NCBI RefSeq assembly: GCF_030384885.1
Contig: NZ_CP128613.1
Source of the DNA: Escherichia coli
Lineage (GTDB): Bacteria; Pseudomonadota; Gammaproteobacteria; Enterobacterales; Enterobacteriaceae
DNA length: 64,000 nt
Direction: 5' to 3' (one strand)
Positions 2,961 through 58,280 of the stretch are shown here, piece by piece. A program made the position numbers and the translations under genes. The notes below the pieces were generated by a model. It was not told the DNA's origin. It made no database searches and saw nothing but the letters and a program-made list of their open reading frames with translations. Numbering within the stretch: position 1 is the stretch's first letter; each line of letters starts with the position of its first letter.

Positions 2961-3078
2961 GAAACGGAGCGGCACCTCTTTTAACCCTTGAAGTCACTGC
3001 CCGTTTCGAGAGTTTCTCAACTCGAATAACTAAAGCCAACGTGAACTTTTGCGGATCTCCAGGATCCGCTTTTTTTTA
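2961..3078 (+). ncRNA. oxyS: OxyS small regulatory RNA
   Basis: Sequence GAAACGGAGCGGCACCTCTTTTAACCCTTGAAGTCACTGCCCGTTTCGAGAGTTTCTCAACTCG... ending in hairpin GCGGATCTCCAGGATCCGC plus T8 matches OxyS as recalled. Confidence 0.85.
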
Positions 3079-4466: not shown

Positions 4467-5681
4467 TTACCAGTTCCACAATGTGCCATCTTCCAGTCGT
4501 GCGACGGGGAGATACGCCGGGTCATACGGATATTTCGCCGCCAGTTTCTCATCGAAAGAAATACCCAGCCCCGGTTCATCGCCTGGGTGCATATAACCTT
4601 CATCGAAGCGCCAGCTGTGCGGGAAGACTTCAAGCATTTGTTCGGAATAGCCCATGTACTCCTGAACACCAAAGTTTGGCACCCAGAGGTCAAAATGCAG
4701 CGCCGCCGCATGACAAACAGGCGATAAATCTGAAGGGCCATGCGAACCGGTACGTACCTGATAAAGCGATGCAAAATCGGCAATCCGTCGCATCCCGGTA
4801 ATGCCGCCTGCATGGGTAATCGTCGTGCGAATATAGTCAATCAGCTGCTCTTCGATTAACTGCTTGCAGTCCCAGATACTGTTAAACACTTCACCGACCG
4901 CAATCGGCGTCACAGTATGCTGGCGAATCAGACGAAAACATTCCTGGTTCTCGGCAGGCGTCGGATCTTCCATCCAGAACAGGCGGTAATCCTCTATGCT
5001 CTTCCCAAAGCGTGCCGCTTCGATAGGAGTCAGGCGATGGTGCATGTCATGCAACAGATGTTCGTTAAAACCGAACTTATTACGCACCGCTTCAAATAAC
5101 TTCGGTGTAAAATCGAGATACTTTTCTGAAGACCACAAATGCTCTTCCGGCCACAGGCCTTTGGTTGCCGGTTCATACGCCAGTCCTTTGCCCTTCGCCA
5201 GGCCATAAGTGGTTTGCATACCCGGTACACCGCACTGCACACGAATCGCCTTAAAGCCCATCTGCTGGTGCTTTGCATAGTCTTCAAGGACTTCATCAAT
5301 CGTGCGCCCGGTGGTGTGGCAATAAACCATCACGCCTTCACGAGAAGCCCCACCAAGCAGTTGATACAATGGCATATTTGCCGCTTTGGCTTTGATATCC
5401 CACAACGCCATATCAATGGCAGAAATGGCCGACATCGTGACGGGGCCACGTCGCCAGTAAGCACCTTTATAAAAGAATTGCCAGATATCTTCAATACGGC
5501 TGGCATCGCGGCCAATTAATTGTGGACAAAGATGATCTTTCAGATAAGAAGCGACCGACAATTCGCGACCATTTAATGTGGCATCTCCCAATCCACAAAG
5601 TCCGCTTGCAGTGGTTATTTTAAGCGTAACGAAATTACGTCCTGGGCAAGTAACAAAAACATCTGCAGCAATAATTTTCAT
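4467..5681 (-). CDS. Enolase-superfamily sugar-acid dehydratase (mannonate dehydratase / RspA-like)
   Basis: Translation [59 protein letters not shown]...; start set at ATG 5679-5681 preceded by AGGAGA; the track ORF extends upstream to 5741. Confidence 0.85.
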
Positions 5682-47871: not shown

Positions 47872-48147
47872 GTGATGAAGTTCCCTGGGCTTGGTCGGTG
47901 AAATGTCAGGCACCAGAGTAAACATTGTGTTAATGGACGTCAATACATCTGGACATCTAAACTTCTTTGCGTATAGATTGAGCAAATCCCAAATAGCCGT
48001 TAAAATTATATGCATTATCACGCCGACAGGTGCATTACACGATGTCACGGTAACGCCTGTACGGTAAACTATGCGGGTTTACGGTCAGTACCCACATAAA
48101 TTGTGTGGTCTGATCTCAATTTATTGACGAAGAGGATTAAGTATCTC
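47872..48147. promoter_or_regulatory. metB / metJ divergent promoter region with met-box-like repeats
   Basis: acatctggacatctaaac contains AGATGT repeats typical of MetJ boxes; between divergent metB and metJ. Confidence 0.45.
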
Positions 48148-48465
48148 ATGGCTGAATGGAGCGGCGAATATATCAGCCCATACGCTGAGCACGGCAAGAA
48201 GAGTGAACAAGTCAAAAAGATTACGGTTTCCATTCCTCTTAAGGTGTTAAAAATCCTCACCGATGAACGCACGCGTCGTCAGGTGAACAACCTGCGTCAC
48301 GCTACCAACAGCGAGCTGCTGTGCGAAGCGTTTCTGCATGCCTTTACCGGGCAACCTCTGCCGGATGATGCCGACCTGCGTAAAGAGCGCAGCGACGAAA
48401 TCCCGGAAGCGGCAAAAGAGATCATGCGTGAGATGGGGATTAACCCGGAAACGTGGGAATACTAA
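48148..48465 (+). CDS. metJ: Methionine repressor MetJ
   Basis: [66 protein letters not shown]..., 105 aa. Confidence 0.95.
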
Positions 48466-48524
48466 AGCGGAAAAGAGCGGCGCGGAGTTAACCAGCCGCT
48501 TTTTTCATACATGGACGTTTAACT

Positions 48525-49133
48525 ATGAAATACAGGCTACTGATCCTCAACCTGCTGGTTTCTGTGCCTGCCTTTGCCTGGCAGCCGCAAACTGGCGACA
48601 TCATCTTTCAAATCTCTCGCTCATCGCAAAGTAAAGCGATCCAACTGGCGACCCATTCCGATTACAGCCACACCGGTATGCTGGTGATGCGTAACAAAAA
48701 GCCCTACGTTTTTGAAGCGGTCGGCCCGGTGAAATACACCCCGCTCAAGCAGTGGATCGCCCATGGTGAAAAGGGTAAATACGTTGTTCGCCGCGTTGAA
48801 GGCGGACTGAGTGTTGAACAACAGCAAAAACTGGCGCAAACGGCAAAACGTTATCTCGGAAAACCGTACGATTTCAGCTTCTCATGGAGCGACGATCGCC
48901 AGTACTGTTCGGAAGTGGTGTGGAAGGTTTACCAGAATGCGCTGGGGATGCGCGTGGGTGAACAGCAAAAACTGAAAGAGTTCGATCTCAGCAACCCGCT
49001 GGTTCAGGCGAAGCTCAAAGAACGTTACGGGAAAAATATTCCGCTTGAGGAAACGGTGGTCTCGCCACAAGCCGTTTTCGATGCGCCACAACTCACCACA
49101 GTCGCCAAAGAATGGCCGCTGTTTTCGTGGTAA
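48525..49133 (+). CDS. yiiX: YiiX-family secreted protein (permuted papain-like fold)
   Basis: 202 aa with signal peptide MKYRLLILNLLVSVPAFA. Confidence 0.85.
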   Translation: MKYRLLILNLLVSVPAFAWQPQTGDIIFQISRSSQSKAIQLATHSDYSHTGMLVMRNKKPYVFEAVGPVKYTPLKQWIAHGEKGKYVVRRVEGGLSVEQQQKLAQTAKRYLGKPYDFSFSWSDDRQYCSEVVWKVYQNALGMRVGEQQKLKEFDLSNPLVQAKLKERYGKNIPLEETVVSPQAVFDAPQLTTVAKEWPLFSW

Positions 49134-49136
49134 TGG

Positions 49137-49225
49137 ATGATGAAAAAAATAATTCCCGCCGTAGTCTGTTTGTTGCTTTGTAGTTGCACGACCTTTCCGC
49201 AAGCTGTCGCTCCGGCAGGGAAAGA
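49137..49225 (+). pseudogene. Lipoprotein gene start, apparently truncated by the adjacent H-repeat element
   Basis: MMKKIIPAVVCLLLCSCTT has a signal peptide with lipobox LLCSC; the reading frame then runs antisense into the transposase gene. Confidence 0.3.
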
Positions 49226-50362
49226 TTACGAAAGCCCGCTCCCAGCAAGGACTGACGCCAGATACTTTCTGTCCATGGCTGCTTTTCGCATCTTACGTCT
49301 TAACCCTGCCTTGAATACCTTATCATTCGTTAAAATATTAATAGCGATGTGCCGTATCCCTGAAAATAATTCTGCGGCGTTTCCTCTTCGTATTTTGCAG
49401 TCGTCTTCATTCATTACCACGTCCAGACGCCAGTGCAGCTTATTCTCCACGTGCCAGTGGTTTCGGATTGCTGTGGCGAACTTTTCTGCGGTTAAATCAG
49501 CAGAACTGATATAATATCTGACCGTCATTTCTGGCTCTTTCTTTTGTTCTGCTATTATTGACCGAAAGGAGAATGCCACGCATAATTTCTTCAGTCCTTT
49601 CCATTCAAACGTGAAATCAATAAGTTCATCACGGACATCGCAAACAATATGAAGACGGATTTCTTCTCTGCCGTGACTCTTTTCACTCATTGCGTAACTG
49701 TCATGCTCTGGATTATTTAATTCTTTCAGCGGAAATTTTTCCTCGAAGGCTTTATTTAGCCGCCCCTGGTTTCCTTTTACAGCGAATACATAATCACCGC
49801 CCTGTTTTTGTATCTTCTCTGCAATATCTTTCTGGCAACCCATCGCATCAGTTGTGATGATTTTTCCTTTAATATCCAGCATGTTAAGAAGTTCAGGGAT
49901 AGCTGTAATTTCATTGGATTTCTCATCCGTCCTGATCTGTCCGATGACCAGACTGTGCATTGTTGAGAATGCACTAATGACATGAATCGCTCCCCTGCGG
50001 CGACTCTTGTCATAAGAATGCCGGAGTGTTTTTCCATCAATTGCGATGACGTCTTTATCATCTGAAGTATGGCAATCTCGCATCCAGTTAATAAAGCACT
50101 CGTGAAATTTTGAAGGACTGATACAGGATACAACTCTGGCGATGGTATCGTGAACAGGAATACCATTTTCAAAATCACCATATTGTTTTAAAAAATCGCG
50201 ATGTGCTTCCCCAAAATCCTCTATATGTTCCCAGCCTTCTGCACCAGAAATAACGGCGCAAATAGTCAACAGTAGAATATCCGATAATTTATGTTCCACT
50301 TTCCAGGTTTGTCTGTAATCGGGGATAATAGAAATATGTTCCATCAATTTTTTAAGTTCCAT
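49226..50362 (-). mobile_element. H-repeat-associated (ISAs1-family) transposase gene, intact ORF
   Basis: 378 aa, [59 protein letters not shown]... matches Rhs-associated H-rpt proteins as recalled; element ends not mapped. Confidence 0.8.
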
Positions 50363-50469
50363 TCTTTTCTCCTTAATTATGTAAGGAGTATTTGATCATG
50401 TATAAGCAATAAAAAAACAGCTTCAGGCAATGAGGAATATCTCAATTTTTAAACATAAAATGCGAATTG

Positions 50470-50905
50470 TTTAGTACAAAAAAGCAGCGTTAAGTGAGTA
50501 GGCCACCGGAACCTCCCCGACAGCCTCTCGCAGAACCGTACGTGAAACTCTCGCTTCATACGGCTCCCGTCAGGCAAACGCGCTTCCTGGTCCTGCTTTC
50601 CAGTGGGCAAACAACTCCGGCTTCTCTTTTGACAGCCTTTCCATTAGCTGACACGCCTTCGTCTTTCTATACCGCAGGGTTTTATATTTCTTTCTCGCCC
50701 ACGCAATCAGCGTCAGATTAATATATCTGCATACTTTCTTCATCGCTGATTTGTGGTATCTCGCGTAATAATTCAGCCACCCCAATATTATCGGATTCAG
50801 CCACTTCGCAATATCTTCGAGACTCATCTCCACCCTGCGTCTGATCCACAGTTTCCTGAGTTTTCCAATCATGCCTTCGGGTTTACTCATCTCACTGTAT
50901 CTCAC
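50470..50905 (-). mobile_element. Group II intron 3' remnant: maturase C-terminal fragment plus domain V
   Basis: ORF fragment has maturase motif WLNPIILGWLNYYARY; just downstream, minus-strand 50566-50533 reads GAGCCGTATGAAGCGAGAGTTTCACGTACGGTTC, a 34-nt domain-V-type hairpin. Confidence 0.6.
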
Positions 50906-51111
50906 ATAGGATCAGATCTCGTCTGATCGTTCCCCCTGCGCTCACTACCATGGCTCTTTACCACAGCAGCCGGGGTTGTTTGGGACCGACTTCCGACAGC
51001 AGATCCCGGTGGGCCTGCCACCATCTCTTCACAAGCTTATGCTTATTACATGCAAAACGTCCCGTTTTGCATCTTTGTGCCTACGGCACACCGTGATCTT
51101 TCCCTGTCGGC

Positions 51112-51330
51112 ATGTTGACCACTGACGAATGGGGTAGTTACGCTAGAGAGTTACCAAAGGAGAAGCATCTGACTGGTAAGATTTTTACTCAGCATATTGA
51201 GCGTAACAATCTGACCCTGAGAACCCGAATCAAACGTCTGGCCCGCAGAACCATCTGTTTCTCGCGTTCTGTAGAACTTCATGAAAAAGTCATCGGTGCT
51301 TTTATCGAAAATATATGTTCTACTAATTGG
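51112..51330 (+). pseudogene. IS1-family InsB transposase C-terminal fragment
   Basis: …DEWGSYARELPKEKHLTGKIFTQHIERNNLTLRTRIKRLARRTICFSRSVELHEKVIG… parallels the InsB C-terminus (…[37 protein letters not shown]…); no N-terminal part present. Confidence 0.6.
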
Positions 51331-51395
51331 AGTCATCACCCTTCTGATGAGCTTTCCTTGGATGATTACCAGACTGAATACATAGCCAAAGATTT

Positions 51396-51755
51396 TTACC
51401 TCATTCTGCTTTTTTTTCTCAAATGACATATATTATATTTTACATCATATTCATAGGCATATGACATTCCCCCGCCCCCCATTATGTCATTGTGGGTTGA
51501 TGTTGGGCTTTCATAAAAAAATACATCTTTTTTTGAACTAGCATTAATTATATTTACTTTATATATTAAAATATTTTCTCCATCTGGAAATATTTTAGCC
51601 ACACAATATAAAGCAGCCAAATCCGAATTACTTAAAAATATATTGTCATCACTCATAACTCCAGCCATTAAATGACTGGAGACTAAAGCAAGGAAATAAC
51701 AACATTGTATTGCCTTCATTTTAATTACTCCCTTGCCTGATAATTGTAACTCCAT
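51396..51755 (-). CDS. Putative Rhs-toxin immunity protein (secreted/membrane-anchored); 3' end may be truncated by the IS1 fragment
   Basis: ORF directly downstream of and overlapping the Rhs C-terminal tip; internal start [21 protein letters not shown] looks like a signal peptide; AT-rich. Confidence 0.45.
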
Positions 51756-52275
51756 TCCCTTTAGCTTTGGGATTATATTTTAGATAGGTGTTATTTGGTG
51801 TTCCCAAGTAACTACTGTATTCTTTTTTTCCCATTCCATTCATATAAGAATTCGTTAAATCTTTGCTTGAAAAATTTAGACTATCATAAACATCATTTTC
51901 TTTTGTTACTTTATTTCCTTTATCGTCAGAGTAAAAACCGTGAGTGTGATAATCGCCTACTCTCTCTGAACCTTCAGGGCATTTTATATTTCGCAAGTCT
52001 ACACTATCATTATCATTTGAACTTATCGGATTCATGGGGAAATATTCACCTTGCTTCTTACATATTAGTCCACCATATTCTTTATTCTCGTTAATTGATT
52101 CTCCATTACACATTGCCAATGCAAATATTCCAATATCATCTATATTTTTTGATTTAAATTCATATAATCCTAATGGATCCATGCCATTCACCGGGCTCAG
52201 CGGATATGTATACAGGTTCCATCCCCCCTTCAGCCCAATCGGATCCTGAGTGATATACCGCCCCTGTAACCGTCC
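51721..52275 (-). pseudogene. Rhs core-end plus C-terminal toxin tip (RhsA-CT-like), detached from any intact rhs core
   Basis: Open frame reads [36 protein letters not shown]…; tip contains [16 protein letters not shown], resembling the K-12 RhsA C-terminal region as recalled. Confidence 0.6.
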
Positions 52276-52664
52276 TCACCGGGAAACAGGTGCTCAAAAT
52301 ACAGGCTTCTGCCGCCGTTATCACTGAGTATCAGAGTGTTATCGCGCAGCTGCAAGCGGATATCCGCAGGCATTTTCCAGCCGGGGCCGAGGCTCCCCAC
52401 CGGCGCGGGCGTTTTTGTCCGGTAACTGCTGTAGGTGCGGGAGAGGATGAACGGCAGCGGGCCGGGCAGGGCAAGGTCGGTTTCGCCGGGAAGGACCTTC
52501 GCACCGAGCAGCGGATTGACCGGATGGCCGGACGTCACCCCGCCGGGGCACACCGAACAGGCCACGCCGGTGGGGGCACCAATACGTACCCCGGCAGAAC
52601 CCTGGACAATGGGGCCACCATACTGCGTCATGTCGCCCTGACGCGCCGCCGGTTTTCCGCTCAT
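52230..52664 (-). pseudogene. Rhs N-terminal fragment (PAAR-like region), 144 codons then stop
   Basis: MSGKPAARQGDMTQYGGPIVQGSAGVRIGAPTGVACSVCPGG… matches Rhs N-termini; frame differs from the downstream core-end/CT frame. Confidence 0.7.
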
Positions 52665-52783
52665 CGTAAAATCCTTTTAAAATAAATAAGAACCAGAAGC
52701 CTAGCGCCAGTCAACAACAGGAAATGATAATGAGTTAACACCCCGGAATGTTTCAGAATTTATAAAAGGCAAATTACAGGCAC

Positions 52784-52811
52784 AAAAAAAGCGCCGTGCG
52801 GCGCTTTTTTC
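52784..52811 (-). terminator. rpmE rho-independent terminator
   Basis: aaaaaaagcgccg-tgc-ggcgcttttttc; on the minus strand the hairpin is followed by a T-run. Confidence 0.6.
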
Positions 52812-52823
52812 GGAAATCCGGTC

Positions 52824-53075
<252 letters not shown>

Positions 53076-53079
53076 CTAA

Positions 53080-55437
<2,358 letters not shown>

Positions 55438-57657: not shown

Positions 57658-57749
57658 AACCCTCAAAATCCCCCCCATCTATAATTGCATTATGCCCCGT
57701 ACTTTTGTACGGGGTTTGTACTCTGTATTCGTAACCAAGGGGTCAGCTC

Positions 57750-58280
57750 GTGACAACTATAGTAAGCGTACGCCGTAACGGCCATGTGGTCATCGCTGGT
57801 GATGGTCAGGCCACGTTGGGCAATACCGTAATGAAAGGTAACGTGAAAAAGGTCCGCCGTCTGTACAACGACAAAGTCATCGCGGGCTTTGCGGGCGGTA
57901 CTGCGGATGCTTTTACGCTGTTCGAACTGTTTGAACGTAAACTGGAAATGCATCAGGGCCATCTGGTCAAAGCCGCCGTTGAGCTGGCAAAAGACTGGCG
58001 TACCGATCGCATGTTACGCAAACTTGAAGCACTGCTGGCAGTCGCGGATGAAACCGCTTCACTGATCATCACCGGTAACGGTGACGTGGTGCAGCCAGAA
58101 AACGATCTTATTGCTATCGGCTCCGGCGGCCCTTACGCCCAGGCTGCGGCGCGCGCGCTGTTAGAAAACACTGAACTAAGCGCCCGTGAAATTGCTGAAA
58201 AGGCGTTGGATATTGCAGGCGACATTTGCATCTATACCAACCATTTCCACACCATCGAAGAATTAAGCTACAAAGCGTAA
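57750..58280 (+). CDS. hslV: ATP-dependent protease subunit HslV
   Basis: 176 aa, [38 protein letters not shown]…. Confidence 0.95.

Follow-up and report, generated by a model that had tools for sequence, protein, structure and literature searches.

The window, a 64-kb stretch of Escherichia coli DNA, carries on its minus strand an insertion sequence of the ISAs1 family (ISEc1/H-repeat) with an intact transposase gene and, inside that insertion sequence, the remnant of a group II intron; a fragment of IS1 and an Rhs core gene stand alongside (Table 1). A scan for promoters and terminators across 50300-51500 returned signals at chance level only.

Table 1 Features of the intron locus and other annotated elements of the window.
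Feature	Position	Strand	Basis or remark
OxyS sRNA	2961-3070	+	Rfam, 139.5 bits; ordinary for the region
ISEc1/H-repeat (ISAs1 family), 1,891 bp; 1,292 bp without the 599-nt remnant	49216-51106	minus	Inverted repeats
ISAs1-family transposase ORF, intact, 378 aa	49226-50362	minus	NF033564 transpos_ISAs1, 415.6 bits
E.c.I9 remnant, 599 nt; nt 1-216 joined to nt 1505-1887 of the 1,887-nt intron	51091-50493	minus	Alignment to 2013C-4282
Domain VI	50531-50493	minus	Rfam match and fold; 3′ splice site at 50493
Domain V, 34 nt	50566-50533	minus	Reads GAGCCGTATGAAGCGAGAGTTTCACGTACGGTTC; AGC triad, 2-nt bulge, GAGA loop
ltrA remnant, codons 340-440 and stop (X/maturase domain, C-terminal tail)	50875-50570	minus	Identical to residues 340-440 of 2013C-4282 ltrA
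Deletion junction; intron nt 217-1504 (1,288 bp) gone	50877-50875	minus	BLAST and prefix/suffix comparison
RF01999 group-II-D1D4-2, intron nt 70-187	51022-50905	minus	93.1 bits against a gathering score of 36, E about 1e-18
Retained 5′ segment, intron nt 1-216 (proximal domain I)	51091-50876	minus	Alignment to full copy
ISEc1 left inverted repeat, the intron 5′ exon	51106-51092	minus	Last 6 nt AUCACG, candidate IBS1
IS1 InsB C-terminal fragment	51112-51426	+	ORF list; neighbour of the intron, 5 nt beyond the left end of ISEc1
L31 ribosomal protein leader upstream of rpmE	53043-53095	minus	Rfam, 60.1 bits; ordinary for the region
ClpQY (hslVU) promoter element	57695-57752	+	Rfam, 63.6 bits; ordinary for the region

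We delimited the insertion sequence by its terminal inverted repeats, CAGGGAAAGATTACG (49216-49230, plus strand) and CAGGGAAAGATCACG (51106-51092, minus strand), which match at 14 of 15 positions. Members of the ISAs1 family carry a DDE transposase between terminal inverted repeats, and 49216-51106 has this arrangement; the transposase ORF runs in the same orientation as the intron, strain 2013C-4282 has the identical sequence, annotated there as a transposase of the ISAs1 family, and the name ISEc1/H-repeat appears in the annotation of related loci. No target-site duplication of this ISEc1 copy (49216-51106) was seen, because one of its sides is rearranged against IS1. On that side, the IS1 fragment is flanked by the left end of ISEc1 and by dsORF-f3, the Rhs downstream ORF (about 51396-51719 of the window). 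Its sequence is identical in 2013C-4282, where it is annotated as a partial IS1 family transposase, and the fragment recurs together with its junction at the RhsE locus of strain C5.

The 3′ part of the intron was recognised by both covariance-model search and RNA folding. Rfam scanning placed RF00029 (Intron_gpII, domains V-VI) at 50568-50493 on the minus strand with 62.8 bits against a gathering score of 40 (E = 1e-10), and the minus-strand RNA of 50566-50533 was predicted to form a hairpin of two helices, closed by a GAGA tetraloop and interrupted by a 2-nt bulge. The fold had a minimum free energy of −36 kcal/mol (z = −3.4). The sole bulged base of the domain VI fold is A50499, which lies 7 nt from the intron 3′ end, in agreement with a bulged A 7-8 nt from the 3′ splice site, and is our branch-point candidate.

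Immediately ahead of domain V, the minus-strand ORF 50905-50570 carries the motif WLNPIILGWLNYYARY and ends in a stop codon (50572-50570) 3 nt before the hairpin. The ORF matched Pfam GIIM (E = 2.3e-14) and the NCBIfam model for group II RT/maturase proteins, TIGR04416 (E = 8.6e-11), with no other family in either collection reaching significance. RT and X domains do not stand together in one protein here: the ORF holds GIIM only, and scored 41.5 bits on TIGR04416 against a cut-off of 300. The first-pass annotation had read a domain V at exactly this position, with the same letters, and just before it an ORF with a maturase motif but no RT domain; these readings stand, and the Rfam scan and the ORF alignment, both named beforehand as results that could refute them, favoured a group II intron. 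Of the 111 codons of the ORF, however, only 101 derive from ltrA; the first 10 are fused, non-coding domain I sequence.

Intron RNA also extends upstream of the ORF remnant, as follows from the RF01999 match to intron nt 70-187, the only Rfam match 5′ of that remnant. The 5′ splice site, GUGUG at 51091-51087, directly follows the ISEc1 inverted repeat, fits the GUGYG consensus and coincides with the published 5′ end of the intron known as E.c.I9. Complete domains I-IV with exon-binding sites were not found, intron nt 217-1504 being absent.

A megablast search of window positions 48500-53100 against 5,426 complete RefSeq E. coli genomes revealed the origin of this gap. Strain 2013C-4282 (NZ_CP027579) matched in two pieces of 100% identity; its locus is about 1.3 kb longer and has ltrA annotated. 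The locus there reads metL-metB-metJ-yiiX, ISAs1 transposase, ltrA, IS1 fragment, dsORF-f3, Rhs core and rpmE-priA, and its intron is intact at 1,887 nt. Window positions 48000-50877 and 50876-52266 are each 100% identical to 2013C-4282, in which 1,288 bp separate the two blocks. When compared with the full intron, the window shares a prefix of 216 nt and a suffix of 385 nt that overlap by 2 nt; these 2 nt (AA, 50877-50876) are common to both sides of the junction as microhomology.

The full ltrA of 2013C-4282 encodes 440 aa (intron nt 488-1810; TIGR04416, 426.6 bits), with RVT_1 at residues 92-312 and GIIM at residues 339-410. No HNH endonuclease match was obtained in this protein, which stops 30 aa past GIIM, and the window remnant has kept the same C-terminus without an endonuclease domain. 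What the window copy has lost comprises ltrA codons 1-339, including the whole RT domain, a candidate EBS1 and the 271 non-coding nt upstream of the ORF; by position, the latter would correspond to distal domain I, domains II-III and proximal domain IV.

The alignment also settled how the damage is to be described. The locus had at first been annotated as the 3′ fragment of an old intron insertion, later truncated, that lacks the 5′ domains and abuts the IS1 InsB fragment. Truncation of the 5′ side by an IS1 insertion or rearrangement, with loss of all 5′ domains, would be compatible with the missing RT domain and with an IS1 fragment only 20 nt upstream of the intron 5′ end. However, the 5′ splice site, 216 nt of domain I and the RF01999 match (93 bits) are all present upstream of the ORF remnant, the 15-nt ISEc1 left inverted repeat stands between the intron and IS1, placing the intron inside ISEc1, and the intact 2013C-4282 locus has the same IS1 junction, so IS1 was not the cause of the damage. 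The alignment to 2013C-4282 already refutes truncation from the 5′ side, to which we give almost no credence; the damage is an internal deletion. The extent originally assigned, 50470-50905, was accordingly too narrow on the 5′ side, where the intron runs to 51091, and slightly too wide on the other, where it ends at 50493 and positions 50470-50492 are ISEc1 sequence outside the intron. The damage had furthermore been misdated: the 599 retained nucleotides and about 4.3 kb of flanks (48000-52266) show no substitution against the strain with the intact intron, which argues for a recent 1,288-bp deletion.

We then compared the boundaries of the intron with occupied and empty copies of the same insertion sequence. 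The intron starts after nt 15 of ISEc1 in the window, 2013C-4282, ATCC 8739 and USMARC-49610, and the boundary positions hold in the latter two strains despite a different flank outside the insertion sequence. An intron-free ISEc1 in ETEC6335, which aligns to window 49216-50482, reads CAGGGAAAGATCATC^AGAAGTACAC, and ATCC 8739 has the same AGAAGTACAC directly 3′ of the intron end; the window 3′ exon reads TAACGCTGC instead, a sequence variant of ISEc1. The remnant boundaries thus agree both with the published E.c.I9 coordinates in ATCC 8739 and with the empty ISEc1 site.

At nt 266-271 of the full-length intron, CGUGAU pairs with AUCACG, the last 6 nt of the 5′ exon; within the first ~620 intron nt, no other 6-nt stretch is a perfect Watson-Crick complement to any part of the last 16 nt of that exon. 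This hexamer is a good candidate for EBS1, and lies inside the deleted segment. For EBS2, CCUGU (nt 217-221) and UCUUUG (nt 355) were considered and found ambiguous, and neither is claimed. Separately, we observed that the empty ETEC6335 site (locus L007, about 4663-4690) has TC at exon positions −2/−1 where occupied sites have CG, and would therefore mispair with the candidate EBS1; some ISEc1 variants may not be usable as homing sites.

Judged by established group II intron biology, the remnant would neither splice nor retrohome, because EBS1, the catalytic scaffold and the RT are missing. One could nevertheless suppose that it functions, either by encoding a protein that acts as a maturase alone or as a mini-intron without ORF for which another E.c.I9 copy provides splicing or mobility in trans: the 101-codon X-domain frame is open and contains in-frame ATG codons, PGAP annotates a protein from it, and domains V and VI and both splice sites are intact. 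What is missing, however, goes beyond the ORF to the 271 nt of ribozyme sequence together with the candidate EBS1, and the retained sequence is identical to its parent, so there is no evidence of selection; nor did the Rfam scan detect a second group II intron signal elsewhere in the 64-kb window. To our knowledge, the trans-complemented ORF-less introns described so far retain all such ribozyme sequence. We regard a functional remnant as very improbable.

The exact deletion allele occurs in none of the 5,426 complete genomes searched, and E. coli genomes contain repeated copies of both E.c.I9 and the Rhs core, two facts that would be expected if the deletion were an assembly artefact from a collapsed repeat. 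Against this, the draft GCA_025467095.1 carries the identical junction in a 151-kb contig that matches the window at 100% over 6,303 bp, and the junction-spanning protein (MSKPEGMIGK..., WJS55427.1/WP_289787403.1) lies on a 4.74-Mb contig; the 106-aa junction protein has an exact match in the protein collection, and a further accession, EHR9216932.1, known here from the protein record alone, corresponds to the 100-aa remnant protein. Repeat collapse normally breaks contigs. Clean microhomology junctions are not what it should leave, and we consider an artefact hardly credible. The other assemblies with the deletion allele could belong to the same clone.

Two further searches for the allele gave the following results. 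The 39-nt junction sequence had no exact match in the GTDB species-representative genomes, a collection that is uninformative on this point as it holds one genome per species. A 100-aa protein variant (P0004, 25 contigs) was considered as a marker of further deletion alleles and rejected, because all 4 of its places among those listed are contig ends, at which draft assemblies are interrupted within the repeated intron.

A second clean deletion lies no more than 1.4 kb from that of the intron: relative to 2013C-4282, the Rhs core gene (region 52230-52664) lacks 3,238 bp internally, with the junction at 52264-52266 and 3 nt of microhomology. The N-terminal ~130 codons are joined out of frame to the C-terminal tip (ORF 51721-52191), and the Rhs toxin gene is therefore a pseudogene in the window. 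Both deletions are common to the draft GCA_025467095.1.

We also considered whether the short copy was made at retrohoming, through an RT template switch from about nt 1505 to nt 216 that installed a shortened cDNA. USMARC-49610 (locus L001, 4016-4396) has, at the RhsE locus, a 1,506-bp internal deletion in an intron copy of ATCC 8739 type with the same left breakpoint after nt 216 (junction CCCGAA/GGCGTG, versus CCCGAA/GGCATG in the window), apparently of independent origin, and with 4 nt of junction microhomology versus 2 nt in the window; a breakpoint common to two alleles hints at a preferred acceptor site. An origin of the USMARC-49610 allele from a window-type deletion, by a second slip between 7-nt CGAAGGC repeats, was rejected, since what it retains is sequence of the ATCC 8739 lineage and the locus is a different one. 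A template switch is nonetheless improbable: the flanks and the retained intron are 100% identical to the full-intron locus, so that deletion in place is more parsimonious, and the nearby 3,238-bp Rhs core deletion, with its short microhomology, indicates that ordinary DNA deletions occur at this locus.

The sample for the nt-216 breakpoint consists of only two alleles, and their agreement could be due to chance. A metagenome scan for intron nt 194-216 yielded no further deletion allele and no added support for a hot spot, with all 11 contigs recovered continuing intact at nt 217, and the sample therefore stays at two. That intron position 216/217 is a preferred deletion breakpoint, whether as an RT template-switch acceptor or as structure-prone DNA, is in our view unlikely; if it were true, short copies that lack the RT but have both splice sites would be produced repeatedly and not at random.

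Taken together, we hold with high confidence that the feature is an inactivated E.c.I9, a class D mobile intron in its usual ISEc1 target, crippled by an internal deletion. From the anatomy of the locus, the intron would have retrohomed into ISEc1 at a point 15 nt inside its left inverted repeat, guided by EBS1-IBS1 pairing; this ISEc1 copy is situated downstream of an Rhs element and between yiiX and rpmE. Comparison with 2013C-4282 shows the later loss of 1,288 bp, in all probability in place and through a single illegitimate-recombination event at the 2-nt microhomology. The 5′ splice site with 216 nt of domain I, the last 101 ltrA codons, domains V and VI with the candidate branch-point A and the 3′ splice site survive. 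The remnant would now be an inert 599-nt passenger between the ISEc1 inverted repeat and the intact transposase gene. NCBI records name the junction-spanning ORF 'maturase'; its proper label is a degenerate E.c.I9 inside ISEc1/H-repeat, and not a free-standing maturase gene.

The element, its site and its biology are already known, and the window copy is newly decayed. The locus adds one case in which a full-length intron and a freshly deleted derivative occupy the identical position, and fits the published view in which group II introns of enterobacteria do not proliferate but become inactive and disappear (PMC3522654). Along with the adjacent 3,238-bp Rhs core deletion, the intron deletion points to an Rhs/IS island that is actively eroding in this lineage.

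A copy is named E.c.I9 when its nucleotide identity to the reference is 90% or more (Leclercq & Cordaux 2012, PMC3522654), and NC_010468 (ATCC 8739) 2411599-2413485 is listed there as a 100% match to E.c.I9, 'in a Rhs region'. The full 2013C-4282 copy is 96.3% identical to ATCC 8739 2411599-2413494, and the window copy has 98.1% identity to ATCC 8739 in nt 1-216 and 94.0% in the 385 nt at the 3′ end; with its insertion in the Rhs-associated ISEc1/H-rpt, it belongs to E.c.I9 by both identity and site. E.c.I9 is class D in Table S2 of the same survey (PMC3522654), and the literature together with the missing En domain places the remnant in class D as well. The full-length ATCC 8739 copy of E.c.I9, an intron name from the Zimmerly database, shares the insertion 15 nt inside the left end of ISEc1/H-rpt beside Rhs, and its ltrA encodes a 440-aa RT-X protein without endonuclease, as in the 2013C-4282 sister. 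It resides at the RhsE/pptA locus, whereas the window copy is at the yiiX-rpmE Rhs locus (with dsORF-f3) and lacks nt 217-1504.

Decayed copies of this intron are common. E.c.I9 was reported as full-length in ATCC 8739 and elsewhere as fragments of 193 bp or 159 bp (PMC3522654), and these Rhs-region copies, E.c.I9-tr1 (193 bp) and E.c.I9-tr2 (159 bp), are reported in IAI1, Sakai, BL21 and others. Both are 5′ fragments without the downstream part, whereas in the window copy both splice sites, the X domain and domains V-VI have been retained. Of the 5,426 complete genomes, 83 contain 80% or more of the intron and 2,565 contain some part of it, most of the latter carrying nt 1-193 or nt 1-159. 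In nearly all of the fragments that we sampled, nt 1 is present and the 3′ part is gone (1-193, 1-159, 1-150, 1-147, 1-145, 1-97 and 1-43). At the RhsE locus of strain C5 (L002, 4018-4260), a 193-nt fragment that is 100% identical to nt 1-193 of the window remnant is followed directly by a second ISEc1 left end, TTAGGGAAAGATCATCAAAAGTTCAC...; the arrangement suggests that the 193-nt fragment may have arisen via an intron-free ISEc1 inserting into, or recombining with, an intron-bearing copy.

Strain NDM1 (locus L013, 2501-3299, beside gmd-fcl-gmm) carries an 88%-identical E.c.I9-like copy (43% match) in an ISAs1 element within an O-antigen/colanic-type cluster; it stops at nt 862, and a partial gene for an IS256 transposase lies some 70 nt beyond that point. 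This copy was considered as a further case of the nt-216 breakpoint and set aside as unrelated, being truncated at nt 862.

Other introns share part of this biology. E.c.I2 and E.c.I9 both target 'Rhs IS (=ISEc1-5)', at two different positions (PMC3522654); E.c.I2, likewise class D, thus resides in ISEc1-type Rhs insertion sequences but at another insertion position from the window intron. We observed a relative with 71% nucleotide identity (~29% divergence) and an annotated ltrA in ~169 E. coli genomes (e.g., NZ_CP032515 269316-270631); given a position similar to the coordinates published for UMN026, this relative is probably E.c.I2. Decay by internal deletion has a precedent in a different class D intron of E. 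coli, one whose homing target is IS679 and which lies on a plasmid. A tblastn search with the X-domain remnant gave matches on Sinorhizobium plasmids most numerously, at ~39% amino-acid identity. The class D prototype, RmInt1 of Sinorhizobium meliloti, is ~1.9 kb in length, encodes an RT and X protein without endonuclease and homes into ISRm2011-2; the window intron differs from it in its host and in its target insertion sequence.
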